DNA from: a phage
Direction: 5' to 3' (one strand)
Length of the DNA: 64,000 bases
Assembly (NCBI GenBank): GCA_025677605.1
Contig: GCA_025677605.1_4110.1
Shown: piece after piece, positions 32,716-51,534 of the stretch
How positions within the stretch are numbered: the first letter of the stretch is position 1
How the letters are laid out: every line of letters starts with the position of its first letter
Position numbers and translations under genes: made by a program
Notes under the pieces: generated by a model
What the model was told of the DNA's origin: nothing
The model's database searches: none
What the model saw: only the letters and a program-made list of their open reading frames with translations

Positions 32716-33117
32716 TTACAGTCCTAAGATTGTGCGTGCTTCGTTACGCTCCTTAGTCTGCTGCATGATGTAAGCGAGCAAGTCCTTACTAATGTATCCC
32801 GTGTCCATAGCTTCACGGATGGATACATCATAAGCACCGAACCCCGTGCGAACGATACGCACATCATTCAGGTTAGTGTTATAGATACCGCCGAGATCAA
32901 CGGCTTCAAATACTGCATCAACAGTATATTCATTGTTACCATCATTGAAGTTTTCCAGTTCAATCGTATTGTTAGTTGCCCAACGTTTACAGCTTCCAAT
33001 GATGCGGCAATATTCAGGGTGCATGTGACCATTGTTTACAGCATACTCCATGCCAGCTTTACCAAAAGTCCGAGCCAGTACTAAAACGTCAGCGTAGGAA
33101 GTGATTGAGAAAGTCAT
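32716..33117 (-). CDS. hypothetical protein
   Basis: start moved to ATG at 33115-33117 (MTFSITSY) behind RBS aaggag; ORF-track extension reads into the 5' hairpin. Confidence 0.55.
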   Translation of the reverse strand: MTFSITSYADVLVLARTFGKAGMEYAVNNGHMHPEYCRIIGSCKRWATNNTIELENFNDGNNEYTVDAVFEAVDLGGIYNTNLNDVRIVRTGFGAYDVSIREAMDTGYISKDLLAYIMQQTKERNEARTILGL

Positions 33118-33136
33118 GGTAGTACTCCTTAAGTTA

Positions 33137-33160
33137 GGAGGGAGAACCATTTCCCCCCTC
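33137..33160 (-). other. GC-rich 5'-UTR stem-loop (PeSL-like)
   Basis: ggagggagaaccatttcccccctc between promoter and RBS. Confidence 0.5.
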
Positions 33161-33172
33161 TCTATGTAAAAC

Positions 33173-33200
33173 ATTATACACTTTACTAAGTACTATGCAA
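33173..33200 (-). promoter_or_regulatory. sigma70-like early promoter
   Basis: minus strand TTGCAT, 16 nt spacer, TATAAT. Confidence 0.55.
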
Positions 33201-33207
33201 GTACTTT

Positions 33208-33540
33208 TTACATTTTAATACCTGGATTCAGGTAGCGGTGAGATCCATATTCTGGATCGGTTTCGGTCCAGTACTGTAAATCGATAGTACCTTTAGCGTT
33301 AATCTTGTCTACCAGCTTATTCATCTTAGCGTATACTACGTCCGCATCGATGCGTTTAAAGCCAGTAGCTTTAGTGTAGTAGTAGTGATTTGCTTCACTA
33401 TCATTGAGGATATACCGAGCACCGTTTGCAGTTTGTGCGATAATGATTGAGTATTCTACTTCCCGATCCAGCCCGTCAATGAATACAGATGAAACATTGG
33501 TACGGATGAAAGCGTTTACGATAGCGATTGAAGTACTCAT
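33208..33540 (-). CDS. hypothetical protein
   Basis: 110 aa; ATG at 33538-33540 preceded by RBS aggag. Confidence 0.55.
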   Translation of the reverse strand: MSTSIAIVNAFIRTNVSSVFIDGLDREVEYSIIIAQTANGARYILNDSEANHYYYTKATGFKRIDADVVYAKMNKLVDKINAKGTIDLQYWTETDPEYGSHRYLNPGIKM

Positions 33541-33689
33541 TTTGAATCTCCTAACTTTGTGGACCGTCGCACCATTGCCGCCCTACGAGATACATTATTG
33601 CAGTACTGCTATACTTTGTCAATAGTTTTTTATTAATAGTTTTCACTCCACCAGCAGATAGTTACTCACCGTTATTAACTATATATTTT

Positions 33690-33730
33690 AGATACACCTA
33701 TGCACCCGGTGGGCTAGTTTTTGTCTATGC
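33690..33730 (-). repeat. conserved noncoding element (CCCACCGGGTGC core), copy 1
   Basis: atgcacccggtgggctag; follows a promoter-in-terminator on the minus strand. Confidence 0.5.
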
Positions 33731-33742
33731 GTATATAATAGC

Positions 33743-33774
33743 AAAGGGACTGACCGGAGTCAATCCCTTTTTTT
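33743..33774 (-). terminator. terminator hairpin with embedded -35/-10
   Basis: aaagggactgaccggagtcaatcccttttttt; stem contains TTGACT and is followed by TATTAT on the minus strand. Confidence 0.45.
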
Positions 33775-33785
33775 ATTCTTTTTTG

Positions 33786-33986
33786 TTAGATGATCTTCCA
33801 ATCTTCCACGATCATTGTAAGATACCGAACCATCGATTCGAGTGATTCGAATTCACGATAATCTGTCGCCCCACCAGCGGTACAAGTACAGCCGATTAAG
33901 CCGGATTGTAGTTCCTGGATCTTTACGTCGATCAGGTTAGCTTTAGCATCTTTCAGTACTTCAACCAGGGCGATAGCGATAGACAT
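33786..33986 (-). CDS. hypothetical small protein
   Basis: 66 aa; ATG at 33984-33986 with RBS ggag. Confidence 0.5.
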   Translation of the reverse strand: MSIAIALVEVLKDAKANLIDVKIQELQSGLIGCTCTAGGATDYREFESLESMVRYLTMIVEDWKII

Positions 33987-34075
33987 AATGTTTTACTCCA
34001 AACTATTGGCGGGAGAACTATTCCCCCGCTCTATGTAAAACATTATACACTATATGATAGTACTGTCAAATAGTT

Positions 34076-34333
34076 TTATGAGATATCCTCGATATAGTCG
34101 GCCCATTTCATTTTTTCAGTACTGTCAAGTGCAATCGGATTGTTAGGATCAAACCATTCACCATTACCGCAATACATCCCCACGGCAACGGTTTTATATC
34201 CATCCTGGGCCGTATTCCATGCAAGGCCACGATAGATACGGCCTTTAACTGGTTGCAGTACTGGTAACGTTTTATGGTCTTCTACGTAGGCCATAGCTTG
34301 AGGATTTACCCGATATTGTGTGAATTGTTCCAT
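34076..34333 (-). CDS. hypothetical protein (paralog of 34416..34682)
   Basis: start moved to MEQFTQ (ATG 34331-34333); shares LPxxxPxxG...Y...W...G-G-W-DP-PI with neighbour. Confidence 0.55.
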   Translation of the reverse strand: MEQFTQYRVNPQAMAYVEDHKTLPVLQPVKGRIYRGLAWNTAQDGYKTVAVGMYCGNGEWFDPNNPIALDSTEKMKWADYIEDIS

Positions 34334-34415
34334 GATGTTTCCCCTTTTAATATTGGGGGAGGATATCTCCCCTATGCAAAACATTATACACTATCAGTTA
34401 GTACTGTCAATACTA

Positions 34416-34682
34416 TCAATTAAATTTAGGATGTATTTCAATGTAGTCACAATAAGGAAAATATTCAATATAACGCGTAGTGATTGGATGTAACGGATCG
34501 GACCATACACCGTCACCCTCATAGCGTGCTATTGGGCCTTTTAAGTACTTTTGTTGTTTCCTTGACCAGTATATGGATTGATAGACTACACCAACGGCAG
34601 GAACAACGAGCGGGAGCATAGAGTGATCTAATACAACGGATTGATAATTTTTATTATAGCGATATGTTGTTTTCTTTTTCAT
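34416..34682 (-). CDS. hypothetical protein (paralog of 34076..34333)
   Basis: 88 aa; GDGVWSDPLHPI matches GNGEWFDPNNPI in neighbour. Confidence 0.55.
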   Translation of the reverse strand: MKKKTTYRYNKNYQSVVLDHSMLPLVVPAVGVVYQSIYWSRKQQKYLKGPIARYEGDGVWSDPLHPITTRYIEYFPYCDYIEIHPKFN

Positions 34683-34734
34683 TGTTAACCTATTATAGAA
34701 ATTATTAAGGGGATATTATCATCCCCTTTTATTG

Positions 34735-34959
34735 TTATACTAGATTATTTAATCCTCTTATGGTTGATGCTTTTTCTTCTTTCTCCCATTGGCGGTAATA
34801 CTTCCATGCTTCGTGATAGGTGGCGATCAGTTTATCTTTCTCTTCCTGGGGGCTATTCAGGAATGTATCCCGATAATCAGTACTATAGATTACATCGAAT
34901 GGTTTTTTCTCAAAGGCCAGGTCTGCAACTACTGATTCAAGTACTTCGTATGTGGTCAT
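34735..34959 (-). CDS. hypothetical small protein
   Basis: 74 aa; RBS aaaggtg before ATG at 34957-34959; PeSL-like hairpin upstream. Confidence 0.5.
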   Translation of the reverse strand: MTTYEVLESVVADLAFEKKPFDVIYSTDYRDTFLNSPQEEKDKLIATYHEAWKYYRQWEKEEKASTIRGLNNLV

Positions 34960-35026
34960 GATATTACACCTTTTAGTGGGGGAGGATATCTCCCCCTATG
35001 CAAAACATTATACTTTGTTTTACTTA

Positions 35027-35290
35027 CTATGCAAGTACTTTTTTCATATAAAGGTTATATTCTACACCGCCGTAACCTTCTACGATGATATGTTTTGCGT
35101 TATCACGTTTGCACATAGTGAAACCGTTGTTGATGTGTTCTGCATTTTCCAGGGATACATCACCGATAGCGGCACATACAGCACTTATAACAGTATTCCG
35201 CAAAGTACTGGTATCGTTAGCGGTCATAGTAGTTTGCAGTACTACGTTGTCGTATACGTGTGCATTGATAGTGATTTCGATAGTGTTCAT
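35027..35290 (-). CDS. hypothetical protein
   Basis: 87 aa; RBS aggag before ATG 35288-35290. Confidence 0.55.
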   Translation of the reverse strand: MNTIEITINAHVYDNVVLQTTMTANDTSTLRNTVISAVCAAIGDVSLENAEHINNGFTMCKRDNAKHIIVEGYGGVEYNLYMKKVLA

Positions 35291-35376
35291 GGTGTATCTC
35301 CTGGACTTGAGGGGAAACCATTTCCCCTCTCGATATAAAACATTATACGTTAATCTAACTACAATGCAAGTACTTT

Positions 35377-35568
35377 TTAAATTTTATTTCCGATATAGTC
35401 CGGCCTATTCTTTTCAGTCATACGCTTTGCTAATGTTTGTATATGGCTTATCGCGTTTAAGGTGTCTTCCTCCAGGGATGAATCAACATAATCAGGATCA
35501 TTCTTAACCTTGCAATGATTATGATAGCGTAGTACTGCAAGTACTTTTTTAACTTCTTCAACTGTCAT
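35377..35568 (-). CDS. hypothetical small protein
   Basis: 63 aa; coupled to 35565..35837. Confidence 0.45.
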   Translation of the reverse strand: MTVEEVKKVLAVLRYHNHCKVKNDPDYVDSSLEEDTLNAISHIQTLAKRMTEKNRPDYIGNKI

Positions 35569-35837
35569 AATAAGTATTCCACTTCGTTAGCTTTCAGGTT
35601 AGTATCAATCATTAGTGGATTTTTGTAGTCCACAAAACGTTTAGTTTTCTCGATAGCGAAGCCCATATAATCCATCTTGCTTACAGTGCATTCATTCTTA
35701 AAAACTTCTTTCGCTGCATTGATGGCTGATTCCATTGATAACCGACCATCTAAGTTAATATTTCCAAATGATCCACCAGCAGAAGTAGGATTACCGTTCA
35801 TATCTTTAATGATCATAGTAGCGGAGTAGCTAGACAT
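35565..35837 (-). CDS. hypothetical protein
   Basis: 90 aa; ATG 35835-35837, RBS aaaggaaa. Confidence 0.55.
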   Translation of the reverse strand: MSSYSATMIIKDMNGNPTSAGGSFGNINLDGRLSMESAINAAKEVFKNECTVSKMDYMGFAIEKTKRFVDYKNPLMIDTNLKANEVEYLL

Positions 35838-35859
35838 AATTTTGTTTCCTTTTATTGGT

Positions 35860-35878
35860 GGGGAGAACTATTCTCCCC
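35860..35878 (-). other. GC-rich 5'-UTR stem-loop (PeSL-like)
   Basis: GGGGAGA-actat-TCTCCCC perfect 7-bp stem. Confidence 0.6.
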
Positions 35879-35890
35879 TTGATGTAAACT

Positions 35891-35918
35891 ATTATACAGT
35901 ACTGATATACTTTGTCAA
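35891..35918 (-). promoter_or_regulatory. sigma70-like early promoter
   Basis: minus strand TTGACA, 16 nt spacer, TATAAT. Confidence 0.6.
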
Positions 35919-35924
35919 GTACTT

Positions 35925-36329
35925 TTATTCGCCCATATAGATTAGATTATCATCGCCCACATAGGGATCGCAAACGTTGATTTCTTCGCAGTACTTAGTG
36001 AATACATCGTCATAGTGACCGATATCACGATCCCAAAAGCCAGTACCGTGACCTTCGCGAGTAAGAAAGAGATCATGACCTGCATGATTATAAGTATAAT
36101 CAGGATTATGGTGTTTTTGTACTGCTTCCATTTCATTACTAAACTTTTCAAGGAAACGAGAACATGCAATCACCGCCGCTTGATGGGCTTGCTCTGATAA
36201 TTCGTAATCTTCCAGGTAGTCGCCGTTCTCATTGTGTACAGTACTGAATTGCATAGCTTCAATGTAACCAGCGACCATAGCAGCATGATTTTTATCGTTG
36301 GCGATGTTCCGGGCTTGATTAGTAGTCAT
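35925..36329 (-). CDS. hypothetical protein
   Basis: 134 aa; ATG 36327-36329; PeSL upstream. Confidence 0.55.
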   Translation of the reverse strand: MTTNQARNIANDKNHAAMVAGYIEAMQFSTVHNENGDYLEDYELSEQAHQAAVIACSRFLEKFSNEMEAVQKHHNPDYTYNHAGHDLFLTREGHGTGFWDRDIGHYDDVFTKYCEEINVCDPYVGDDNLIYMGE

Positions 36330-36410
36330 GATTTTATTCCTTTGTGCTGGGGAGAACTATTCTCCCCTTGATGAAAACTATTATACAGTACTAAGATACT
36401 TTGTCAATAC

Positions 36411-36632
36411 TTAATTACGTTTAAAATGATATGTGCCTTTATCATCCTGTACGCCCCATACTGATTTACCATCAACACCAGTGAAGCCGGATTGTAATTC
36501 AATATGGAAACCATTATTATCAACTACAAAAACTTTTTTATTTTCATCCCGATAACATTGATATTCTGAATCAACATTAAAGGCCGCATCATTCAGAAGA
36601 TTGGAAGCGTAAATGCAAGTCATTGTAGTCAT
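36411..36632 (-). CDS. hypothetical small protein
   Basis: start moved to MTTMTC (ATG 36630-36632) after RBS aagga. Confidence 0.5.
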   Translation of the reverse strand: MTTMTCIYASNLLNDAAFNVDSEYQCYRDENKKVFVVDNNGFHIELQSGFTGVDGKSVWGVQDDKGTYHFKRN

Positions 36633-36684
36633 GATTTTATTCCTTATTACCAGGGAGAACCGTTCCCCCCTCTCGATATAAAAC

Positions 36685-36712
36685 ATTATACTTGATTCTA
36701 AGTACAATGCAA
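36685..36712 (-). promoter_or_regulatory. sigma70-like early promoter
   Basis: minus strand TTGCAT, 16 nt spacer, TATAAT, followed by GC-rich hairpin 36651-36672. Confidence 0.55.
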
Positions 36713-36757
36713 GTACTTTTTAAAAATAGTTTTCAGTACTGACAATACTTATATTAT

Positions 36758-36800
36758 AGATACACTTATGCACCCTATGGGTCAGTGAGTTATCTCTCAA
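36758..36800 (-). repeat. conserved noncoding element, copy 2
   Basis: atgcaccctatgggtcag then terminator-like hairpin 36816-36846. Confidence 0.45.
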
Positions 36801-36854
36801 TGACTATATAATAGCAAAGGGACTGACTGGAGTCAATCCCTTTTTTAATCTTTT

Positions 36855-37439
36855 TTATCGTGTTATAGTTACGGCTTTTACGTCGCGTTGTTTATAGTAC
36901 TGATTCCAGATATTGCGGGTTAAACCGTAATCAAGTACTTTAATCAGGCCATTGCGATCTTGGCCTATGTTCTGCTTTCTGATATCTCTTATCGTTAGTG
37001 TTGATAAGGTATCATCAACGTGTTGTAGTGCATCAGCGAAATGGTGTTGGCGTTCAATAGTGTTACGTTTGACATTGTACTTTAATTCATTGCAAGCGTT
37101 AACGTGCTTTACACTGCCTTTGCTTGCAGTACTCAAACGATCCATAACAATAAACATATTATCAGGATCGCTTAAATGCATATGCACCTTAGCAAAGTAC
37201 TGTTTAAGGTGAGGGCGGTCATAATCTAAAAAATTCCATACCTTACATTCTGTTTCATTTTGTTCTACGCCAGCGTCACAATTAGCGACCTTAATCACTA
37301 ACCGATCATTTAAAGCGAATACGATACGGGATGATCCGGCCCCGATGATCTCCAGACCAGCCAACCGACAAGCTGTAAGGATCTCTTTGTTAGTTTCCAT
37401 TTCTGCCAGTGTACGGATGAATTTAGTATAATTACGCAT
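36855..37439 (-). CDS. minimal protein kinase-like protein (ePK-like fold, tentative)
   Basis: 194 aa; IGAGSSRIVF (Gly loop), VIKV (Lys), DIRKQNIG (catalytic-loop-like), KVLDYG (DFG-like). Confidence 0.45.
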   Translation of the reverse strand: MRNYTKFIRTLAEMETNKEILTACRLAGLEIIGAGSSRIVFALNDRLVIKVANCDAGVEQNETECKVWNFLDYDRPHLKQYFAKVHMHLSDPDNMFIVMDRLSTASKGSVKHVNACNELKYNVKRNTIERQHHFADALQHVDDTLSTLTIRDIRKQNIGQDRNGLIKVLDYGLTRNIWNQYYKQRDVKAVTITR

Positions 37440-37508
37440 TGCATTTACTCTTTAAGATAGCAGGGAGGTATTCCCTGCCTTGATGTGACTATTATATGTT
37501 AGTACTAA

Positions 37509-37736
37509 TTAGATTGCAACAGTTTTATTTGCAATTACAGAATGAATTGCGGTTTTACCTGATTTAGTACTGAATACATTAGCACGACCATTTTCAATAG
37601 TGATGCGGTATTCACCTTTACTATCAATGAGGTTGATAAATTCAGGAGTACTAAACCGAGTTACTTTAAAAGTCAGTACATTGAGTAGGTCCACCAGCGT
37701 AGTAGTTTCTTTGATGCGTTCTAAGATATTAATCAT
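37509..37736 (-). CDS. hypothetical small protein
   Basis: 75 aa; ATG 37734-37736; upstream 60-bp unit repeated before next gene. Confidence 0.5.
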   Translation of the reverse strand: MINILERIKETTTLVDLLNVLTFKVTRFSTPEFINLIDSKGEYRITIENGRANVFSTKSGKTAIHSVIANKTVAI

Positions 37737-37794
37737 TTTGTTTCTCCCCGTGTTGGTATAGATACATAGTACTAAAACAATTGAGTACTGTCAA

Positions 37795-38013
37795 TTAGAT
37801 AATTGCATATTTCTTTAAAGATAATGCGTCTTGTGTTGGCTGATACTCGATACCGTTACCGTTATCTACTTTAACTAATAAACCTTTGTCAATTAGTTTT
37901 TTAATAGTCCGTTGGCCTTGTTGAAAATTGGTAAAATGTGAATCATTACGAAAGGTATAACCGTGCTTAACTGCTTCATCAATAGTTTTCTTTTCGATTT
38001 TAGATAATTTCAT
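37795..38013 (-). CDS. hypothetical small protein
   Basis: start moved to MKLSKIEKK (ATG 38011-38013); same upstream unit as 37509..37736. Confidence 0.5.
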   Translation of the reverse strand: MKLSKIEKKTIDEAVKHGYTFRNDSHFTNFQQGQRTIKKLIDKGLLVKVDNGNGIEYQPTQDALSLKKYAII

Positions 38014-38066
38014 TTTGTTTCTCCCGTGTTGGTATAGATACATAGTACTAAAACAATTGAGTACTG

Positions 38067-38321
38067 TCAACGTGATATTAGTTTTATTTTCTTATTATAT
38101 TGTTGGTGTTCATATAGGTTTATCTTTCCTGTATTCTCGATTACTATTCTGTTGTTGGTGTCCACGTCGATTACACGCAGTTTGCCGTTGCTTAACTTCC
38201 TGGGCAATAGATTACCATTAATAAACTCATTAGCAAGCTGTACGGCCTTTGTGATGATTCTCTGTGGTGCTTTATAGTGTACCCGCAAGATATTATCTTT
38301 TGATAGTTGAACCTTAATCAT
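38067..38321 (-). CDS. hypothetical small protein
   Basis: 84 aa; ATG 38319-38321. Confidence 0.5.
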   Translation of the reverse strand: MIKVQLSKDNILRVHYKAPQRIITKAVQLANEFINGNLLPRKLSNGKLRVIDVDTNNRIVIENTGKINLYEHQQYNKKIKLISR

Positions 38322-38383
38322 TTTAGTTTATCCTATAAAAAAGGCGGGAACTGATCCCGCCGTGTTGTTAGTACTGCAAGTTA

Positions 38384-38779
38384 TTAGATAACCTGGCGGC
38401 GTTTACTGTATACGGTAACACGGTTTCCCTTACGGTCATGACGGATCTCTCGTTTGTTGCGAATCAGTTCACTTGGACGCTTCAGGTTTACCAGGTGATC
38501 CGCGTGAGTCCATGCATTCGAATTTACCTGTACTTTAATATCAGAACCAGCGATAAATTCATCTTGAGCGTTAAGTACTGCTGACAGTTCATCAGCTTTC
38601 TTCTGTTCTGCTGCTGTCAGTACTGGCTCCGGTGAATTCACAATATCAGAGATTTCTTTGAACTGTACGGCCCAGCGTTGACCTTTCGGTGCGGTCGTGC
38701 CCATGTCTTTAAATGCTGCTCCTTCCTCGCGTGCAACAATACGGGCAGCTTCACGGGTAGCGTAGAATTTAGTAATCAT
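38384..38779 (-). CDS. hypothetical protein (paralog of 50198..50464)
   Basis: FATRExAR...FKDMG...RWAV and C-terminal RHDRKGNRVTVYS shared with 50198 gene; start at MITKFY. Confidence 0.55.
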   Translation of the reverse strand: MITKFYATREAARIVAREEGAAFKDMGTTAPKGQRWAVQFKEISDIVNSPEPVLTAAEQKKADELSAVLNAQDEFIAGSDIKVQVNSNAWTHADHLVNLKRPSELIRNKREIRHDRKGNRVTVYSKRRQVI

Positions 38780-38874
38780 GGTATACATCCTATTAGTTAA
38801 GTTAGTACTACAAGTTAGAGTCTATTATAAAGTACTATCTGGGCAATGTCAAATAGTACTTTAAATGGATTCTA

Positions 38875-44591: not shown

Positions 44592-44671
44592 TATACTATC
44601 CTCTTAAGTTAATTTAATTTCTTTCCCCTATGCAGACACTATATCAAAGTATCTGCATAAAGTAAAGCTAA

Positions 44672-45016: not shown

Positions 45017-45096
45017 TTTTAGTTTCCTCAGTTGTTTTGATAAAATCTATTATGCCAGTACTATCAATCTATGTCAATAGTACTGTGATAATAATT

Positions 45097-45309: not shown

Positions 45310-45391
45310 TTTTTGTTTCCTCTTAGTTGTCTTGATAAAATCTATTATGCCAGTACTATCAAACTATGTCAATAGTACTGTGATAATATTT

Positions 45392-45535
45392 TTACTTACT
45401 TTTTGCTTTCTTTGCTGCTTCCACCTGGTCGGCCCACTCTTTACCCCATACTTGAGCATTATAGTGATACTGACAAAGAGCAACGCCCCGCTTCAAACCA
45501 GTAATAGATTTTTTACCACATTGACAAGTTTTCAT
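45392..45535 (-). CDS. small Cys-rich protein (possible zinc ribbon; below ORF-track cutoff)
   Basis: 47 aa MKTCQCGKKSITGLKRGVALCQYH...; paralog of 39287..39469. Confidence 0.4.
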   Translation of the reverse strand: MKTCQCGKKSITGLKRGVALCQYHYNAQVWGKEWADQVEAAKKAKSK

Positions 45536-45622
45536 TTTAGTTTCCTCTTAGTGGGGAGAACCATTTTCTCCCCTTGATGTAATGTATTATACTTTATCTG
45601 ATTTACTTTGCAAGTACTTTTT

Positions 45623-45850
45623 TTAATTTAATTCATCCAGGCAAAGGATACGCTCAACGCCCAAATCAGTTAAACTAATAGACGGCACTTGATAGGTTTC
45701 AACGTATTCTACACTCGCCCACTGACCGAACTCATTCACCGCCCAGGTATTCATTGCAAAATGTAATTCCGCACCTTTCTTATTAGTAATTACAGCAACA
45801 GTAGAAGAATTGCCAGTAGTACCAGATACGCGAGTGATTACGATAGCCAT
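45623..45850 (-). CDS. hypothetical small protein
   Basis: 75 aa; ATG 45848-45850. Confidence 0.5.
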   Translation of the reverse strand: MAIVITRVSGTTGNSSTVAVITNKKGAELHFAMNTWAVNEFGQWASVEYVETYQVPSISLTDLGVERILCLDELN

Positions 45851-45920
45851 TGTTTTGATTCCTATTCAGTAGTTGATGTATGTATTATCGCAGTACTTAA
45901 AACTATTGTCAAACTATTTT

Positions 45921-46073
45921 TTAAAGTTTATCAATGATTGATGCCGTTTCATTGATAGTCTTGCCGTGTTTTGCACACGCGATAACTGCTTTAAATTCCT
46001 TTGATGACCAATCTTTTTTACTGCATACTGACATTACTTGTAAAGTGAAACAATCCAGTTCATAAGTATTCAT
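45921..46073 (-). CDS. hypothetical small protein (below ORF-track cutoff)
   Basis: 50 aa MNTYELDCFTLQVMSVCSKK... Confidence 0.3.
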   Translation of the reverse strand: MNTYELDCFTLQVMSVCSKKDWSSKEFKAVIACAKHGKTINETASIIDKL

Positions 46074-46253
46074 CTTTATATCCTCAGTTAGTTAAGGTGT
46101 CTCGCCTTGATGAAATTAATTATACGCTAATCTCTTAATCGTGCAAGTACTTTTTATTAGTTTTTGCAAAATACTTTAAACGCCCGCAATCGCATTCTAA
46201 CGACCTTAACGCCACCAGCTAGGGCGATGCATCAGATAATCAGTTTAATGCGT

Positions 46254-46267
46254 TAGAATCGATTCTA
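46254..46267. promoter_or_regulatory. perfect 14-bp palindrome TAGAATCGATTCTA (candidate operator)
   Basis: seen directly; half-site ATCGCATTCTAACG recurs at about 41236 and 51443. Confidence 0.4.
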
Positions 46268-46299
46268 GGCGGTGCTGGGGGCATGGTAAACGATAAACA

Positions 46300-46327
46300 C
46301 AAAAAAGCCCACTGTTTAAGGTGGGCT
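46300..46327 (-). terminator. rho-independent terminator
   Basis: AGCCCAC-tgtttaag-GTGGGCT with T-run on minus strand, just downstream of the 46349 stop. Confidence 0.55.
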
Positions 46328-46348
46328 AGTGATTCAGTACTTTAATTG

Positions 46349-46831
46349 TTATGCTTCAACTTTGCGATGAGCTTCGATCCATTCCTCGCGAGTCAATCCG
46401 CTTTCTTTGATAGCATCCAGTACTACGGCAATGCAGTTACCGCGTACTGGTACAGTGTATTCCTCGCCATTATCCAGAACTACCGGCACGCGTTCCTGAA
46501 TCCATTTTTTAGCTTTTACTTCTGGCTTGTCTTCCCCGTATTTCGCTGCCAGGGCTTTACGTGCCATTTCGGTTACTACTTCCAGATCAAGCCCAGCGAC
46601 GGCGGCGTTAATATCTTCAATCGTTTTCTGCAATTCAGCTTCGCGTGCTGCCTTCTCAGCTTCAAGTGCCGCCGCTTTATTAGCTTGTAGTTCTTTCGCT
46701 TCGCTGTACGCAATGTTAAAATTGTTGCGTACTGCTTTCATGGTATCGCTATCCAGTTCAGCCAGGATCTCAGCCGCTACGTTAGTTTCATTTGCTACCA
46801 GTGCTTTGATGAATGATTTTACATTAGCCAT
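46349..46831 (-). CDS. hypothetical Ala/Glu-rich protein (locally higher GC)
   Basis: start at MANVKSF (ATG 46829-46831) behind RBS gaggaa; coiled-coil-like AAALEAEKAAREAELQK. Confidence 0.55.
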   Translation of the reverse strand: MANVKSFIKALVANETNVAAEILAELDSDTMKAVRNNFNIAYSEAKELQANKAAALEAEKAAREAELQKTIEDINAAVAGLDLEVVTEMARKALAAKYGEDKPEVKAKKWIQERVPVVLDNGEEYTVPVRGNCIAVVLDAIKESGLTREEWIEAHRKVEA

Positions 46832-46884
46832 TATATAATTCCTCAATTAAAGTTTAGTTTACGTTTATTAGTGTATCAAAGTTT

Positions 46885-46948
46885 TCTTGACGTGTCCAGT
46901 TTTTCGTTCGACTTACTGGCGGTCTACTTAGTGTTCCCCGTCTTGATG
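46885..46948 (-). other. structured RNA element, diverged copy C
   Basis: CCAGT/ACTGG hairpin and CCCCGTCTTGATG tail; promoter TTGACA, 16 nt spacer, TAGAAT at 46955-46982. Confidence 0.35.
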
Positions 46949-47030
46949 TAATACATTCTACGCTTTTCTTCGGTAATGTCAACTACTTTTTTAAAACTAT
47001 TTTCAAAGTATCTCAGTACTACACCACTAC

Positions 47031-47058
47031 AAAAAAAGCCCACTGTTTAAGGTGGGCT
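47031..47058 (-). terminator. rho-independent terminator
   Basis: same AGCCCAC...GTGGGCT hairpin as 46300-46327. Confidence 0.55.
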
Positions 47059-47075
47059 ATTGATTCAGTACTAGA

Positions 47076-47375
47076 TTATAAACAGTTAATTACTCCTGTG
47101 TGCGTTACTTTCTCAGTATCCATAACCGTGACCGAACCGCGTTTTTTCTTCGCATCATAATAAATTGTTGTGCTACCTTTCGCATCTTCTTCATGGAACG
47201 GGCCATTTTTAAATGCTTCTGGCTGTAATTCCAGATCCTTTAAAACAATCTCGCCAGTACTTTCATCGGTCATTGCTACGGTGCACTGAATGAATTTATC
47301 ACCAGGTACATCTAACGACGCATTAACAGCGAAAGAGGAAACAGATAAAGCCAGGGCGATGATTGCTACTTTCAT
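47076..47375 (-). CDS. putative secreted/periplasmic small protein
   Basis: 99 aa; signal peptide MKVAIIALALSVSSFAVNAS. Confidence 0.55.
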   Translation of the reverse strand: MKVAIIALALSVSSFAVNASLDVPGDKFIQCTVAMTDESTGEIVLKDLELQPEAFKNGPFHEEDAKGSTTIYYDAKKKRGSVTVMDTEKVTHTGVINCL

Positions 47376-47460
47376 TTGATTATCCTTAGTTACCAGGGGA
47401 ACCGTTCCCCCCCTTGCTATGTAAAATATTATACAGTACTAAAAACTAATTGCAAGTACT

Positions 47461-47697
47461 TTATGATTTTTTATAAAACATTTCGGCAGTGATATTTTTA
47501 CCCGTTGGTTGTACTTTATCCAGGATTTTTTGATGCCCGGACCGTCCAAATGAATATGATCCGTAAACCGTAAACCAGTAGTTACCCTCAGTGTTTACAT
47601 GTACAGCACAATAGGGAACGCCCCGCGATTCATCACTAGTAAAGTGTGCTACCGTTCCCGTTACATTCGAAGACGTTGATTTGATTTGTTCGACCAT
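47461..47697 (-). CDS. hypothetical small protein
   Basis: 78 aa; ATG 47695-47697. Confidence 0.5.
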   Translation of the reverse strand: MVEQIKSTSSNVTGTVAHFTSDESRGVPYCAVHVNTEGNYWFTVYGSYSFGRSGHQKILDKVQPTGKNITAEMFYKKS

Positions 47698-47805
47698 TTT
47701 CTTATTCCTTAGTTACCAGGGGAACCGCTCCCCCTATGCAAAACATTATACGCGTTTAAAAACTATTAGCAAGTATTTTAATAAAAAGTATTTGAAAAAT
47801 AGTTC

Positions 47806-47834
47806 TTGACAACTGCATCCAATACTGGCATAAT
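47806..47834 (+). promoter_or_regulatory. plus-strand sigma70-like promoter
   Basis: TTGACA, 17 nt spacer, CATAAT on plus strand in an otherwise minus-strand region. Confidence 0.45.
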
Positions 47835-47840
47835 TACTAC

Positions 47841-47947
47841 ATAAAGACAAAACAGTCTCTAACCCACCGGGTGCATAGATCCGTCTATTAAATGATTCAG
47901 TACTGAAAAAAGAAAGGGGATCAATTGATCCCCTCGTTGTTATTTTG
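47841..47947 (+). ncRNA. candidate small RNA containing the conserved CCCACCGGGTGC element
   Basis: promoter upstream; palindromic hairpin GGGGATCAATTGATCCCC at 47916-47933 followed by T-rich tract; no ORF. Confidence 0.25.
47906..47933 (-). terminator. rho-independent terminator (bidirectional)
   Basis: GGGGATCAATTGATCCCC with T-run on minus strand after the 47940 stop. Confidence 0.5.
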
Positions 47948-48161
47948 TAAGGTATAAACAGAAGTCACCTTTATTTGCTACGCCGCCAGTGTAACGCGAT
48001 GAATAGTTAGAAACGTCCTGGACTTCTGCTATTACCAGTGTATCATCATTCAATTCGTCGCAGAAGCAAACGGCTGGATCTTTTACGCCGATATTGTCGG
48101 CATGTTCCCGCATAGATTTAACCAGTGCTTCAAGTTGGGAAAGGGTAGTAATGTTAGCCAT
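47940..48161 (-). CDS. hypothetical small protein
   Basis: start moved to MANITTLSQ (ATG 48159-48161). Confidence 0.5.
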   Translation of the reverse strand: MANITTLSQLEALVKSMREHADNIGVKDPAVCFCDELNDDTLVIAEVQDVSNYSSRYTGGVANKGDFCLYLTK

Positions 48162-48246
48162 TTTATTTTCCTCATTACCAGGGAGAACCATTTCTCCCCT
48201 CTATGTAAACCATTATACAGTACTAAAAACTAATTGCAAGTACTTT

Positions 48247-48450
48247 TTAATTTAATTGCTTAAAAACATACTCAAAGACACGACGCACATCATTGATCAT
48301 CGCCTGGCGGTTAGCAGGTAACGCATCAGGATCGCCACTATCCCAGGCATTGATAAAACTCCCCAAATCATGATAGATTTTATTCTGTAAGCCGATTAAC
48401 TGCAATTCTTTTTCTTCAAGCTCTTTGATACGTTCAATTAAATCACTCAT
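48247..48450 (-). CDS. hypothetical small protein
   Basis: start moved to MSDLIERIKELEE with RBS aagga. Confidence 0.45.
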   Translation of the reverse strand: MSDLIERIKELEEKELQLIGLQNKIYHDLGSFINAWDSGDPDALPANRQAMINDVRRVFEYVFKQLN

Positions 48451-48467
48451 TATATAATCCTTAGTAC

Positions 48468-48752
48468 TTAACTGTAAGATCCGCAACGGTCGCAGTAGTG
48501 CCCGTCCTCGTCATCGTCAACGAATTGACCGACGAAATGATCTACTTTCGCTTTCAGGTTATTATAATCGTTTTCTACTTCCTTTAAACGCTTCTGGTAG
48601 TATTCCAGTGCTTTAAGATATGCCGCATCAGCAGTTTTCTCCTGCATAGCTAAATTCATGCCACGCGTTTCATCGTACAGCCAAAAACCATCGGTGCACT
48701 GGCTAATAGATAATGACTTGCTTAGTACTGTATAGTTAATTACTTTGCTCAT
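48468..48752 (-). CDS. hypothetical protein
   Basis: 94 aa; C-terminal HYCDRCGSYS. Confidence 0.5.
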   Translation of the reverse strand: MSKVINYTVLSKSLSISQCTDGFWLYDETRGMNLAMQEKTADAAYLKALEYYQKRLKEVENDYNNLKAKVDHFVGQFVDDDEDGHYCDRCGSYS

Positions 48753-48837
48753 TAGATAATCCTCAGTAAAGGCGGGAACTATTCCCCGCCTCGATATAAA
48801 GTATTATACGTTAATCTAACTACAATGCAAGTACTTT

Positions 48838-49110
48838 TTAGTTTTTTAATTCTTTTACTGCATCAGGTGCGACAGAACCATCAATGTATTGAACATCGTT
48901 TTCAACTTCACGGGCGGCATCATTCAGCAGATCAAAATTAAATTCCATTTCTTCCAGATCATCAAAATCAGGCTCATAACCATTAATTGTTGAATAAGTC
49001 CAAGTACCTTTTTCATAAGTCACGACACTTACATCAGGGAAGAAATCTTGCACATGATCCATTGCATCCCGAACCAGTTGATGTGCAGTTGTGATATTTA
49101 AAGTTTTCAT
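48838..49110 (-). CDS. hypothetical protein
   Basis: 90 aa; ATG 49108-49110. Confidence 0.5.
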   Translation of the reverse strand: MKTLNITTAHQLVRDAMDHVQDFFPDVSVVTYEKGTWTYSTINGYEPDFDDLEEMEFNFDLLNDAAREVENDVQYIDGSVAPDAVKELKN

Positions 49111-49203
49111 TTTGTTACCCTTTTAGTGTGAGCGGGGAACCACTCCCCGCCTCGATATAAAGTATTATACGCTTTTAAACTTAGTATGCAAGTACTTTTT
49201 AAA

Positions 49204-49878
49204 TTAATATTCGATTGATTCTACTACGCCATCAATAACATTGAATTGATATTCGTTACCCTCAATCAGTGCCGTAATGTTTTCAGTAGTGAATTGATCC
49301 TCATATGCATTCTCTAAATCACGGTACAACTTGCGGGATAATTCACGAATAGTTTCAGTGAGTAGTTCCTCAAGCTCATTAACTAACGCTTCTTGTTTTG
49401 CGGTTAAATCAGTGTAAGCCGATTCAATGTACCCGCTTACAGTGTTTTCATGCGAGTAGTTGGAGTGAGAACGCTTTACACTCATTGCCAAATCATCTTC
49501 ATTCAGCAGGTGACGGATTGAGCGATACTTAGTTAATGCTCTAACCTTGCGTAAAAACTTCTCAGCGTCAACGTGGTCAGTACTAATTGATGCACCGTCA
49601 CCCTGCGACCAAAAACCACTGAATTGTATTTCAGCGTCATTAATGCCATATTCCGGTAGTACTGTTTCTTTATAGTATTCAATTTCACTTTCAGAAAAAT
49701 AATCGTCGTTTAAGTTTTTTTCACGTTCCCGAACCAGTTCGATAGCTGACGTTTGTTGTTCTGCGTTCAATTCAGAAAAATCCATAACGAAAGTAGTATT
49801 AGTGACAGTTTTCGCTTTGCAACCCTCATTCAATTCAGAAAAATCCATAACGAAAGTAGTAGTAGTGATAGTTTTCAT
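49204..49878 (-). CDS. hypothetical protein with N-terminal tandem duplication
   Basis: 224 aa; 21-aa unit TTFVMDFSELN repeated twice from a 63-bp direct DNA repeat near 49743-49870. Confidence 0.55.
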   Translation of the reverse strand: MKTITTTTFVMDFSELNEGCKAKTVTNTTFVMDFSELNAEQQTSAIELVREREKNLNDDYFSESEIEYYKETVLPEYGINDAEIQFSGFWSQGDGASISTDHVDAEKFLRKVRALTKYRSIRHLLNEDDLAMSVKRSHSNYSHENTVSGYIESAYTDLTAKQEALVNELEELLTETIRELSRKLYRDLENAYEDQFTTENITALIEGNEYQFNVIDGVVESIEY

Positions 49879-49946
49879 TTTGTAACTCTCATTCAGTAGT
49901 TGATGTAAGTATTATACGCTTTTAAAAACAATTGTCAAACTATTTT

Positions 49947-50021
49947 ATCAGGGGAGTTTTTCGTGTGCCTTACTCCTGGGCTACTTAACGGGGAGTTACT
50001 TATTTCGTTCCCCGTCCTGAT
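49947..50021 (-). other. conserved three-stem structured RNA element, copy B
   Basis: near-identical to 39901-39972; flanked by P1 (TTGCAA, 16 nt spacer, TATAAT) and P2 (TTGACA, 16 nt spacer, TATAAT). Confidence 0.5.
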
Positions 50022-50109
50022 GTAAAACATTATACGCCTTTAAACATAGTTTGCAAGTACTTTTTATCAAATAGTTTTCAGTACTGGCATTGTACTTAAT
50101 CACTTTACT

Positions 50110-50145
50110 ATAGATACACTTCCGCACCCTATGGGCTATCGCCTT
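50110..50145 (-). repeat. conserved noncoding element, copy 5
   Basis: ccgcaccctatgggctat. Confidence 0.45.
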
Positions 50146-50197
50146 GTGTCCGGCTTGTAAGTATTATCTCACTAAGCCGGATAATGGTCAAGTACTT

Positions 50198-50464
50198 TTA
50201 TTCAAGTACTGCAATCTTTTTAGTACTGTACACGGTAACACGGTTTCCCTTGCGGTCGTGCTTTATTTCTACCACTCGACGCGATACACTATCAGGACTT
50301 TTTAACGCCGCTAACCAGTACTGAATTGATCGGGCTGTACTTTGCTTTACTACGGCCCAACGTTTACCCCTGGCTGATTGTACGCCCATATCTTTAAACG
50401 TTGCACCGTCAACCTTTGCCGCTTGCCGAGCTTGTTCACGCGTCGCAAAGTATATAATATTCAT
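50198..50464 (-). CDS. hypothetical protein (paralog of 38384..38779)
   Basis: start moved to MNIIYFATRE; 3' end about 33 nt near-identical to 38407-38440. Confidence 0.55.
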   Translation of the reverse strand: MNIIYFATREQARQAAKVDGATFKDMGVQSARGKRWAVVKQSTARSIQYWLAALKSPDSVSRRVVEIKHDRKGNRVTVYSTKKIAVLE

Positions 50465-50546
50465 GCTGTTACCCCTATCGTTGTTGTATAAAAGAAATCT
50501 ATTATAAAGTACTATCACCGTGCAATAGTACTTTTAATCTATTCTC

Positions 50547-50786
50547 TTACATGCCAACCATTGCAGCACGGATCGCAGTAGTGCTATACTTGAATCCGTC
50601 CGGTGTTTTATCTTGTCCAGTCTGTTCTAAAAATAGCATCATATGACGGGCCGCATCATTTCGATTAGTGTTAGCGGCAATAAAGTCCAGGGCCAACCGG
50701 TATAATGATTCATCGTTATTAATCCAAAGGCTTACATTCCATTGAGTTTTGTTTTTGTGACCTAAGAACATTTTTGATTTAGCCAT
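50547..50786 (-). CDS. hypothetical small protein
   Basis: 79 aa; ATG 50784-50786. Confidence 0.5.
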   Translation of the reverse strand: MAKSKMFLGHKNKTQWNVSLWINNDESLYRLALDFIAANTNRNDAARHMMLFLEQTGQDKTPDGFKYSTTAIRAAMVGM

Positions 50787-50879
50787 TTTTAAATCCTCTT
50801 AATTATAGTGGGGAACTATTCCCCACCGGATAGAAAGTATTATACATTAATCTAATTACTTTGCAAGTACTTTTTTAAC

Positions 50880-51242
50880 TTATTCGTAAATCTTGCCACT
50901 GTCAGCCCATACCAGGAAACGAGGCATATTATCCCATGCATCTTGTTTTAAGTTTAAGCCGTGCAATACTTCGGTACTTTCCATCCCAGGCACTGGTTTA
51001 CTATACACCGCAAATAGTTCGCCCATGTACTGATAAGCCATCGTTAAATCACTGGCAATCATCTTGTGGATCATCGCATCAAGCATCACAGTAGCGGCGT
51101 ATTGTTCACGCTTAAGCGGCAACATTGCAATCAATTCCCGATAAGCTGATATATGAATCTTTACAGTCTCAGCCGGAAGATCTTTCATCTCTTCGCGAAA
51201 GTTAACCAGGTTAGCAATGATTTTAGTGATTTGAGTCGCCAT
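50880..51242 (-). CDS. hypothetical protein
   Basis: 120 aa; ATG 51240-51242. Confidence 0.5.
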   Translation of the reverse strand: MATQITKIIANLVNFREEMKDLPAETVKIHISAYRELIAMLPLKREQYAATVMLDAMIHKMIASDLTMAYQYMGELFAVYSKPVPGMESTEVLHGLNLKQDAWDNMPRFLVWADSGKIYE

Positions 51243-51534
51243 CGTTTTAATTCCTATTAAAGTGAGTTAGGAGCGTTTCCCCCGTCTCGATGTAAAACAT
51301 TATACGCCCTTAAACATAGTATGCAAGTACTTTCTACAAATACTTTTAAAATAGTTTTCTTTCTATATAGGAGTACTATCATTCAGTACTGAATCAATCC
51401 AGTGGTACAATTATTCAGTACTATACCCTTAAAACGGCCTCAATCGCGTTCTAACGCATTAATACACCTAAGCTATACATTTGCACCACTCCCAACAATC
51501 CAGGGCTTTACGGGCCGTTTAAACACCAGTACTG

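Follow-up and report, generated by a model that had tools for sequence, protein, structure and literature searches.

Between positions 33,115 and 51,338 of contig GCA_025677605.1_4110.1 (GenBank assembly GCA_025677605.1), a 64,000-nucleotide (nt) stretch of phage DNA hereafter called the window, small genes on the minus strand are preceded by copies of one intergenic cassette: a near-consensus sigma-70 promoter, a G-rich hairpin, a Shine-Dalgarno site and an ATG. We consider it probable that this array is a set of homologous early-gene expression cassettes lying in a direct terminal repeat, in which a stem-loop in the leader of the sense RNA would protect or insulate the 5′ end of each message, while the cassettes would act at the DNA level as patches of homology.

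The sequence-only reading of this DNA had reported about 30 modules of promoter, hairpin and ribosome-binding site at 33.1-51.3 kb, a count that our scans bear out. A strict pattern (TTG[ACT][ACT][ATC], a spacer of 16-17 nt and [TCG]AT[AT]AT, followed within 22 nt by the start of a hairpin whose stem has 6 bp or more, 4 or more of them G-C pairs) returned 25 cassettes on the minus strand, all at 33.2-50.9 kb, and 1 on the plus strand. The number expected by chance was 0.04 in dinucleotide shuffles of the window and 0.01 in shuffles of the region. Looser rules gave 28 clear hairpins plus 1 degenerate copy, the additions being c40936 (with TAGACA as its -35 box), the long-loop copies c50056 and c40008, and the degenerate c51326. 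An independent consensus scan detected perfect (12/12) sigma-70 promoters at 13 minus-strand sites, of which 12 have a spacer of 16 nt. Every gene between ~28 and 56 kb is carried by the minus strand, and the cassettes are therefore to be read on that strand.

A typical gap between genes is 80-100 nt long and leads from the stop codon through an A-rich stretch (AAAAAGTAC), the -35 box, a 16-nt spacer, TATAAT, the leader and the G-rich hairpin to a GA-rich Shine-Dalgarno site and the ATG, with a repeated unit of ~85-95 bp. When the cassettes were aligned, TATAAT proved invariant, and the A-rich upstream element, the -35 box, the 16-nt spacer and positions of the leader were conserved (leader consensus (G/A)nTTTACAT(C/A)(A/G)AG; conserved leader motif GTTTTACAT). 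The promoter first described, TTGACA or TTGCAT with a 16-17-nt spacer and TATAAT, is thus present, but TTGCAA is used as a -35 box as well and the spacer is 16 nt in all cassettes but one. The hairpin does not begin about 7 nt past the -10 box, as first described: across all copies its distance from that box is 12.2 ± 1.8 nt; the stem ends 19.3 ± 2.6 nt before the ATG, and -35 and ATG lie ~80 nt apart. Folding of the leaders gave free energies of -8.6 to -16.7 kcal/mol for the 28 hairpins, which share a GGGG/CCCC core, and left the Shine-Dalgarno site unpaired in nearly all of them. The hairpins are not near-identical, as had been supposed: 21-22 distinct stems occur among the 28, related by compensatory changes, and the commonest (GGGGAGAA..TTCTCCCC) is found in 6 copies. 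A hairpin is absent from some 10 additional promoters of the region; 5 minus-strand copies represent another repeated promoter module, 4 of these with a terminator/promoter composite.

Megablast of 33.1-41 kb matched 60 phage records and identified Asteriusvirus (121Q/RaK2-like jumbo myophages) as the closest group. The top records were Escherichia phages A4 (94% identity), 121Q, CRJP21, UE-S1 and G17, all of them Asteriusvirus with genomes of 320-386 kb; the window thus derives from a jumbo phage of this kind and not from a T4-type phage. In the close relative vB_Ec-M-J a direct terminal repeat of 21,525 bp is annotated (record positions 1-21,525); record position 84 aligns to window position 53,460 and record position 21,397 to 32,414. 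Mapped in this way, ~32.3-53.5 kb of the window would be a direct terminal repeat filled by the cassette array. A terminal redundancy of ~20 kb has been reported for G17 (PMC6563267). The window appears to span a collapsed copy of the repeat, running from ~53.5 kb down to ~32.3 kb, and unique sequence of the right end would then occupy 53.5-64 kb. Below 32.3 kb, outside the repeat, lie tightly overlapping open reading frames (ORFs) of ~70 amino acids (aa) without cassettes. There, adjoining the inferred repeat, the minus strand at 27,800-31,320 holds ~15 ORFs of 65-87 aa whose stop and start codons overlap (ATGA) and which are not separated by cassettes, an organisation in sharp contrast to the array.

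Covariation and placement of the leader stem-loop

Within the window, 97% of arm positions are paired, versus 83% after exchanging the 3′ arms at random between copies, where the highest of 2,000 shuffles reached 92%. We further built an ungapped 25-nt alignment of 27 different hairpins with a loop of 3, drawn from the window, A4, UE-S1, 121Q, Klebsiella phage RaK2, a 357-kb genome and the rV5-like phage A7_1. Across the five phage groups in this alignment, two-sided changes occur at 7 of 8 stem pairs. Cells with such changes number 38, as compared to 7.5 ± 2.3 in shuffles, none of 500 shuffles reaching the observed value, and the covariation score is 0.639, as compared to 0.246 in shuffles and at most 0.23 in slid registers. 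The aligned hairpins were picked by a hairpin finder, which inflates the percentage paired but not the double changes. RNAalifold, applied to a MAFFT alignment of whole cassettes, produced a weak and mis-registered structure since indels shift the stems, and was replaced by the loop-anchored counts and the ungapped alignment.

The position of the hairpin is kept where its sequence is not. RaK2 carries stems of unrelated sequence at the same place (GGGAATGAA/TTCATTCCC and GGGGATACA/TGTATCCCT), as does the 357-kb genome (GACAGGAGA/TCTCTTGTC and GGGTAAGC/GCTTACCC), and a metagenome contig also retains the position with different stems. A hairpin follows 27/58 promoters in the window (background 4.8%), 54/134 in A4, UE-S1 and 121Q together (5.9%), 10/42 in RaK2 (6.3%) and 10/33 in a 108-kb metagenome contig (8.7%), as well as 0/7 in the T4-type phage RB49 (8.8%).

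The sense strand folds more stably than the antisense strand in 26 of the 28 hairpins (mean -13.0 vs -11.6 kcal/mol). Internal G.U pairs number 7, versus 1-3 A.C mismatches, and are the main source of the energy gap. Both the excess of G.U pairs and the stabler sense fold point to a transcribed RNA rather than to a symmetric DNA palindrome. Beginning 12 ± 2 nt after the -10 box, the hairpins would lie downstream of the predicted start and therefore be transcribed.

That the hairpin sits in the predicted 5′ untranslated region (UTR) and is not simply a terminator had already been suggested from the letters alone, and this view held up. Intrinsic (Rho-independent) terminators share with the cassette hairpins a G+C-rich stem of 7-10 bp and a short loop. 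They are, however, followed directly by a U-run, which the cassette hairpins lack; the latter are also placed differently, between a promoter and a ribosome site. In the 28 hairpins, T-runs in the 10 nt past the stem reach no more than 0-3 nt, mostly 1, so that no stem is followed by a U-run, and a terminator scan called 0 of the 28 terminator-like. The same scan recovered ~10 canonical T-run terminators inside the array on the minus strand, about every 1-3.5 kb; where transcription is to stop, the phage thus relies on ordinary terminators. Stems without U-runs, next to ~10 ordinary terminators in the same array, argue that the cassette hairpins are RNA structures of the 5′ UTR and not canonical intrinsic terminators.

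The closest known relatives of these modules are the promoter-early stem-loop (PeSL) cassettes, as the sequence-only reading had suggested. PeSLs combine AT-rich DNA with an early promoter of the sigma-70 type, a polyG/polyC stem-loop, and a Shine-Dalgarno site with its ATG. They are found next to small genes of unknown function in hyperplastic regions, where they mediate indels, and their stem-loop is reported to terminate upstream transcription (PMC2839356, PMC4122927). That stem-loop sits inside or ahead of the promoter (in the spacer, over the -35 or -10 box, or right before the start site) and so acts on transcription arriving from upstream. They have been described in the T4-type phages RB49/phi1, T4/PST and KVP40/nt-1 (Arbiol et al. 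2010, PMC2839356; Comeau et al. 2014, PMC4122927). Several features are shared: both are intergenic modules of ~100 bp repeated between small genes of unknown function in a hypervariable region, with AT-rich upstream DNA, a consensus sigma-70 early promoter, a stable polyG..polyC stem-loop and a terminal Shine-Dalgarno site and start codon, and in both, indels or replacements between close relatives have their junctions in the modules. Other features differ. In the RB49 region that we inspected (ORFs 185-211), the stems occupy the spacer between -35 and -10 (TTGACAGGGGGTCACCGATCCCCTATAAT) or cover the -10 box, and in both cases precede the start site, whereas here the stem-loop is always downstream of the predicted start, at 12 ± 2 nt from the -10 box, and would be transcribed from its own promoter. 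In addition, the phage is an Asteriusvirus and not a member of the Straboviridae, the array is placed in a direct terminal repeat, no sequence homology extends beyond the promoter consensus, and the lack of U-rich tails makes a terminator role unlikely. We therefore class the cassettes as a variant of the PeSL kind rather than as a member, sharing concept and evolutionary behaviour but differing in stem-loop position and host. Four other modules of the window (33770, 36843, 40135 and 42883) match the classical PeSL layout better, with a 12-bp terminator hairpin enclosing the -35 box TTGACT, then TATTAT. In the literature that we searched, which included papers on CBB, PA5oct, RaK2, rV5 and G17 and a review of jumbo phages, neither the cassettes nor these classical-layout modules are described for RaK2-like or rV5-like phages. 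The present cassettes extend the PeSL idea past T4-type phages: regulatory cassettes that double as recombination linkers are seen in RaK2/121Q-like jumbo phages and, less densely, in rV5-like phages.

Among the other roles that could be assigned to the hairpin, the one that retains most ground, while still unlikely, is that of a transcription attenuator or terminator as proposed for PeSLs, stopping or thinning read-through from upstream so that the cassette's own promoter dominates. The PeSL211/210 stem-loop of phi1 cut lacZ expression as much as rrnB T1 did (PMC2839356), the G4/C4 stems of the cassettes resemble those of PeSLs, and most genes of the array have no other structure between them. 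Against this stand the missing U-runs, the failure of every stem to pass the terminator scan and the use of canonical T-run terminators some 10 times in the same array. Moreover, a strong terminator at +30, downstream of its own start, would abort the cassette's own transcript, a problem that the RB49 hairpins avoid by lying inside the promoter. With a stem-loop in every early mRNA leader, the distinct layout of the cassettes described here makes the choice between terminator, stabiliser and recombination target open to direct experiment.

Exchange of gene-plus-cassette units among phages

Gene order was compared with related phages through blastn chains between the window and A4, UE-S1 and 121Q. 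The genomes differ mostly by whole gene-plus-cassette units, with at least 7 single-unit indels and 1 gene swap, and the junctions fall in cassettes (Table 1). Where the genomes part, the one cassette present in the shorter genome aligns to each of the two cassettes that border the extra unit in the longer genome, and the two alignments overlap by 57-108 bp. In A4, the genes 43493..43347 and 43818..43576 occur in opposite order. One A4 cassette, the orthologue of c35369, carries the whole hairpin of another cassette (c34069-type), which indicates exchange between cassettes. Such a pattern is the hallmark of recombination between dispersed repeats, which has also been proposed for PeSLs, and calls for no dedicated recombinase. 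Hence, the earlier suggestion of an active gene-shuffling system stands in part: shuffling associated with the cassettes is visible against relatives, but an "active" system is not borne out, and the data fit ordinary homologous recombination between repeats.

The cassettes and their genes are not confined to one genus. A 98-nt cassette query matched 73 phage records, among which were Asteriusvirus (10-23 places per genome), other RaK2-like genera (RaK2, K64-1, Muenster, fENko-Kae01, Salmonella phage 7t3, and Erwinia and Yersinia phages), and Vequintavirinae and phi92/phAPEC8-like phages (135-150 kb). Partial matches to 7.9 kb of the array were present in 301 phage records. A7_1, a member of the Vequintavirinae, contains near-identical intergenic cassettes, e.g., ..TTGCAAagtaaaacgaataaagTATAATacattacatcagGGGGAGAAatgaTTCTCCCC.. 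before a 47-aa gene, which matches c45613. It also holds 10 gene-sized segments with 68-88% identity to genes of the window, in scrambled order (window positions in kb, listed as they follow one another in A7_1: 50.7, 48.6, 45.6, 41.9, 45.2, 50.7, 42.3, 44.8, 47.6 and 32.9). The matches to 73 and 301 records and the scrambled segments of A7_1 show, at the level of sequence, that small early genes, sometimes together with their cassettes, form a pool common to unrelated large coliphages. In IMG/VR, the generic pattern TTGACA-N16/17-TATAAT-N11-14-GGGGAG gave mostly single matches at chance level and was dropped, while a specific pattern matched only RaK2/121Q-type genomes and a few metagenome contigs. 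Such exchange between unrelated coliphage families bears on the spread of anti-host functions and on the annotation of jumbo phages proposed for therapy.

A bolder reading, to which we give little credence, is that of an actively mobilised, integron-like pool of gene cassettes, with the cassettes as joints, shared by Asteriusvirus, rV5- and phi92-like phages and perhaps RB49-like phages. Its mechanistic part is to our minds just as doubtful: the hairpin would be targeted as single-stranded DNA or as a cruciform by a structure-specific nuclease or recombinase, and excised gene-plus-cassette circles would move between co-infecting phages. If true, a mobilised pool would explain why the same small early genes appear scrambled across phage families.

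Proposed role of the cassettes and remaining alternatives

Based on these findings, we return to the expression cassettes proposed at the outset. Every small gene is served by a separate near-consensus sigma-70 promoter preceded by an A-rich element, and host RNA polymerase would use these promoters as soon as infection brings in the DNA; the presence of near-consensus host promoters within a terminal repeat agrees with very early expression by that polymerase. Transcription usually starts 6-8 nt after a -10 box, which here would place the start in the conserved ACAT. The predicted leader of 45-50 nt would comprise a few unpaired bases, a G-rich stem-loop of 8-9 bp at ~+6 to +27 and an unpaired Shine-Dalgarno site, with the ATG 19 ± 3 nt past the stem. 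In this scheme, the stem-loop would have been selected as a structure of the sense RNA at a fixed distance from the promoter. Its most likely job would be to give the mRNA a defined, nuclease-resistant 5′ end, be it the cassette's own start or an end produced by cleavage of read-through RNA in the AU-rich promoter segment that directly precedes the hairpin. The stem-loop would likewise shield the ribosome site from pairing with upstream sequence and may additionally slow 3′ exonucleases on the upstream message. Protection or insulation of the mRNA 5′ end is thus our best guess at its function, and the stabilisation of mRNA by hairpins that had been suggested for these modules is plausible. The cassettes would at the same time serve as homology patches: recombination deletes, inserts and permutes single gene-plus-cassette units among Asteriusvirus genomes, and the same genes with some of the cassettes recur in scrambled order in unrelated rV5-like phages.

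The hairpin of the ompA 5′ UTR and the leader of T7 phi10 (GGGAGACCACAACGGUUUCCC) are stabilising stem-loops at the 5′ end of messages. Like the cassette hairpins, they are G-rich, lie near the 5′ end and precede an unstructured ribosome site, and the T7 phi10 leader also has its purine-rich arm first. They begin, however, at the 5′ end or within ~0-4 nt of it, as compared to the ~5-7 unpaired nt predicted here.

In T5, the pre-early genes are small host-takeover genes with host-type promoters in the terminal repeats. The array resembles these first-step-transfer genes in that small genes under strong promoters of the host type form a block, and in that this block lies in a long direct terminal repeat thought to be the first DNA to enter the cell; its placement suggests a T5-like block of first-expressed genes for host takeover. 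There is no sequence relationship between the two, and to our knowledge neither a per-gene promoter-hairpin module in T5 nor a two-step DNA entry in Asteriusvirus has been described. The genes behind the cassettes are annotated as hypothetical in relatives. Among the 10 largest proteins, Pfam searches gave sub-threshold matches only (kinase-like and papain-fold toxin-like) and no recombinase or RNA-binding protein. One of these weak matches, to protein kinases (E = 0.001), was obtained for a 194-aa protein encoded at 36855-37439 on the minus strand; in the region that this stretch matches in the relatives Turkey3 and Turkey5, a serine/threonine kinase is annotated, and the protein is possibly an early host-modifying kinase. 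No tRNA genes were found, and Rfam returned nothing relevant for the whole window at gathering thresholds or for 33-53.5 kb at E <= 1. Regardless of their role in the phage, modules of ~85 bp with a consensus promoter, an insulating hairpin and a ribosome site represent ready-made expression parts.

Several observations weigh against a selected, 5′-protecting stem-loop. The literature searched holds no data on transcription starts, RNA ends or half-lives for this phage group, and both the start site, predicted from geometry, and the role of the hairpin are inferred. The predicted unpaired leader of ~5-7 nt (3 in some folds) is longer than the 0-4 nt that full protection of the ompA type takes. 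Orthologous hairpins of the window and A4, UE-S1 and 121Q differ by 6 changes from Watson-Crick to G.U pairs, 4 one-sided breaks, 1 two-sided break of pairing and 3 double changes, too few substitutions to show purifying selection or to separate selection from drift, and the double changes may be hairpin swaps. Part of the energy difference between sense and antisense folds is no more than ~0.3 kcal/mol and may stem from the energy model. In every hairpin it is the 5′ arm that is rich in purines, a bias that could come from common ancestry or from an unrecognised sequence-specific role. Finally, the ends of indels must fall between genes, where almost all DNA is cassette, and it is the double alignment alone, not the location of the junctions, that argues for recombination between repeats.

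We regard it as very unlikely that the hairpin is the binding site of a regulator, whether a nut/boxB-like antitermination site, the site of a translational repressor, the target of an endoribonuclease or, at +6 to +27, a DNA operator for switching off the early promoters. Its place just past the start site is fixed in every copy, which would suit an operator or a nut-like site, and the GGGG/CCCC core is conserved with the purine-rich arm always first. However, the loops are conserved neither in sequence nor in length (tag, atgg, cgg, atatc, and up to 12 nt), and Rfam holds no matching family, which disfavours a boxB-type site with a conserved, protein-recognised loop. Stems are wholly changed in other genera (e.g., GGGAATGAA and GACAGGAGA) while their position is kept, and the variable arm spacing and G.U pairs fit a dimeric DNA-binding protein poorly. 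A dimeric DNA operator was rejected on account of that variable spacing and of the covarying stems, and an RNase III site because the stems are far too short.

Slightly more doubtful still is an action of the inverted repeat in DNA, as a cruciform or single-strand hairpin targeted by a structure-specific nuclease or recombinase that mobilises gene-plus-cassette mini-circles in the manner of integrons. PeSL mini-circles were detected in RB49 and phi1, where a recombination protein binding GGGG..CCCC was suggested (PMC2839356), and the unit-sized indels, the gene swap, the hairpin swap and the presence of the modules in several families are all in line with such mobility. Yet the junctions share 57-108 bp of homology without a fixed crossover point, as in ordinary homologous recombination; promoter repeats that lack a hairpin also act as joints (45107/45299); the G.U asymmetry favours sense RNA; and no recombinase was identified nearby, where Pfam gave weak matches only. 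Least probable of all, and by our estimate remote, is a functionless hairpin carried as a passenger of a promoter cassette spread by duplication: the cassettes are clearly homologous, with spacers and leaders shared within sub-families, and comparisons of orthologues gave no significant sign of selection, but pairing is kept through two-sided changes at 7/8 stem positions and across genera with unrelated stems, and hairpins follow promoters 4-10 times above background in four phage groups.

Feature coordinates and other repeated elements

Table 1. Cassettes, related promoters, terminators, junctions with relatives and inferred terminal repeat in the window
Feature	Coordinates	Strand	Description
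c51326, degenerate	51240..51338	-	TTGCAT-16-TATAAT; -10 at 51304..51299; leader GTTTTACATCGAG; imperfect G-rich hairpin; ATG 51242
c50866	50784..50878	-	TTGCAA-16-TATAAT; hairpin 50826..50808 GTGGGGAAtagTTCCCCAC; ATG 50786
c50056	49988..50068	-	TTGCAA-16-TATAAT; long-loop hairpin 50015..49988 ACGGGGAA-n12-CTCCCCGT; hairpin-less promoter next at 49938 (tandem pair)
c49191	49108..49203	-	TTGCAT-16-TATAAT; hairpin 49150..49132 GCGGGGAgtggtTCCCCGC; ATG 49110; gene and cassette missing from A4
c48830	48750..48842	-	hairpin 48791..48770 AGGCGGGGAatagTTCCCGCCT; ATG 48752
c48239	48159..48251	-	hairpin 48198..48181 GGGAGAAatggTTCTCCC; ATG 48161
c47772	47695..47784	-	TTGCTA-16-TATAAT; hairpin 47735..47718 AGGGGGAgcggTTCCCCT; ATG 47697
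c47455	47373..47467	-	hairpin 47410..47396 GGGGAAcggTTCCCC; ATG 47375
c45613	45533..45625	-	hairpin 45573..45553 GGGGAGAAaatggTTCTCCCC; ATG 45535 (47-aa gene); near-identical cassette and gene in rV5-like A7_1
c43898	43816..43910	-	hairpin 43859..43841 AGGGGAAActtTTTCCCCT; ATG 43818; gene swapped with neighbour in A4, missing from UE-S1 and 121Q
c43572	43491..43584	-	hairpin 43532..43513 GGGGAGaaatagtaCTTCCC; ATG 43493
c43343	43260..43355	-	hairpin 43301..43282 GGGGGGAAatggTTCTCCCC (internal G.U pair); ATG 43262
c42563	42482..42575	-	hairpin 42522..42504 AGGGGAAAccgTTTCCCCT; ATG 42484
c42128	42045..42140	-	TTGACA-16-TATAAT (12/12); hairpin 42088..42070 GGGGAGAAtagTTCTCCCC; ATG 42047
c41208	41131..41220	-	12/12 promoter; hairpin 41169..41151 AGGGGAAacatcTTCCCCT; ATG 41133
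c40936	40856..40948	-	TAGACA-16-TATAAT; hairpin 40896..40877 GGGGAGAAatgaTTCTCCCC; ATG 40858
c40637	40556..40649	-	12/12 promoter; hairpin 40597..40579 GGGGAGAAgttTTCTCCCC; ATG 40558
c40008	39942..40020	-	long-loop hairpin 39967..39942 ACGGGGA-n12-ACCCCGT; hairpin-less promoter next at 39892; tandem pair paralogous to 50056/49938
c39553	39467..39565	-	12/12 promoter; hairpin 39511..39493 GAGGGGAAtggTTCCCCTC; ATG 39469; gene and cassette missing from UE-S1 and 121Q
c39283	39196..39295	-	12/12 promoter; hairpin 39241..39222 GAGGGGAAacggTTCCCCTC; ATG 39198
c37519	37437..37531	-	TTGCAA-17-TATAAT; hairpin 37478..37460 GCAGGGAataccTCCCTGC; ATG 37439 (194-aa kinase-like protein)
c36712	36630..36724	-	hairpin 36669..36653 GGGGGAAcggTTCTCCC (G.U pair); ATG 36632
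c36407	36327..36419	-	12/12 promoter; hairpin 36367..36349 GGGGAGAAtagTTCTCCCC; ATG 36329; gene and cassette missing from UE-S1 and 121Q
c35918	35835..35930	-	12/12 promoter; hairpin 35878..35860 GGGGAGAAtagTTCTCCCC; ATG 35837
c35369	35288..35381	-	hairpin 35329..35309 GAGGGGAAAtggTTTCCCCTC; ATG 35290; A4 orthologue with c34069-type hairpin instead
c35034	34957..35046	-	hairpin 34996..34978 GGGGGAGatatcCTCCCCC; ATG 34959
c34410	34331..34422	-	12/12 promoter; hairpin 34374..34354 (TA)GGGGAGatatcCTCCCC(CA); ATG 34333
c34069	33984..34081	-	12/12 promoter; hairpin 34029..34009 GCGGGGGAAtagTTCTCCCGC; ATG 33986
c33200, last of array	33115..33212	-	hairpin 33159..33136 (A)GAGGGGGGAaatggTTCTCCCTC; ATG 33117
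Hairpin-less promoter class, span enclosing 45372, 45077 and 41815	41750..45387	-	TTGACA-17-(TGn)CATAAT; leader AGATTTTATCAA
Canonical terminators splitting the array into blocks	33743..47935	-	hairpin and T-run
Terminator stems (terminator scan)	47935-47914, 47058-47037, 46327-46306, 42883-42856, 41323-41298	-	
Terminator stems (terminator scan)	40135-40108, 38361-38343, 36843-36816, 34728-34707, 33770-33743	-	
Junctions	35924/36327 and 39300/39463		UE-S1 and 121Q
Junction	43585/43854		UE-S1
Junction	43356/43855		121Q
Junctions	48840/49135 and 50876/50796		A4
Junction between hairpin-less promoter repeats	45107/45299		UE-S1
Direct terminal repeat, inferred extent	32300..53545	.	mapped from the vB_Ec-M-J annotation

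Two further promoter arrangements accompany the cassettes. The hairpin-less promoters at 45372, 45077 and 41815 on the minus strand consist of TTGACA, 17 nt and TGnCATAAT (a true extended -10) with the leader AGATTTTATCAA. They precede paralogous small genes (MAIITK../MAIIAK..), form the indel joint 45107/45299, and are also present in RaK2 and the rV5-like A7_1. The tandem-promoter units 50056/49938 and 40008/39892, likewise on the minus strand, are two paralogues of ~190 nt. Downstream of their first promoter come a long-loop hairpin (ACGGGGAA-n12-CCCCGT) and a brief non-coding segment; their second promoter is perfect and has no hairpin. A7_1 contains ~89% identical copies of a part of ~87 nt of this unit.

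A second repeated module occurs in 8 copies, with cores at 50135, 42821, 40078, 36781 and 33713 on the minus strand and at 47863, 52176 and 52392 on the plus strand. It is composed of a sigma-70-like promoter, a small covarying hairpin (AGAC-aaaaca-GTCT, GCC-ggaaacaa-GGC, GAG-agataN-CTC and others) and an invariant core CCCA[CT][AC]GGGTGC 25-28 nt after the -10 box, followed by GTATCTAT; some copies end at a canonical terminator ~50 nt further on. No Rfam family matched this module, at least 5 distinct copies of which are found in RaK2. Its appearance is that of a small-RNA family (60-100 nt) or, alternatively, of a DNA site at +25.

Near the inferred physical end of the genome (~53.5 kb), a non-coding stretch of ~1.3 kb contains an iteron-like tandem array at 52588-52756, with ~11 repeats of CCATCTAG in nested periods of 16, 32 and 40 nt, which could be an origin, packaging or terminus element. 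A perfect promoter at 53146 on the minus strand, in the terminal non-coding region, has the leader GTTCTACATAGAG as in the cassettes and an AT-rich hairpin (GAATTGccgcaaaCAATTC) with no ORF nearby, and may drive a non-coding transcript.

Finally, the palindrome AGTACT is found 269 times in the window, as compared to 21.5 expected from base composition, and CAGTACTG 58 times, as compared to 0.7 expected. A literature search for CAGTACTG returned primer noise only. AGTACT is enriched in non-coding DNA and occurs in each of the three reading frames, with no copies in the bins at 20-24 kb and 28-32 kb; it is also present inside promoters (AAAAAGTACTTGCA; TAGTACTGTATAAT) and, e.g., at 52.1-53.4 kb. 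For TAGTACTGTATAAT, an extended -10 box was rejected because the TG is one position off. The palindrome reaches a density of 4-8 per kb in all RaK2-like loci (A4, UE-S1, 121Q and RaK2) and zero in the RB49 locus, and could be a protein-binding or modification site.

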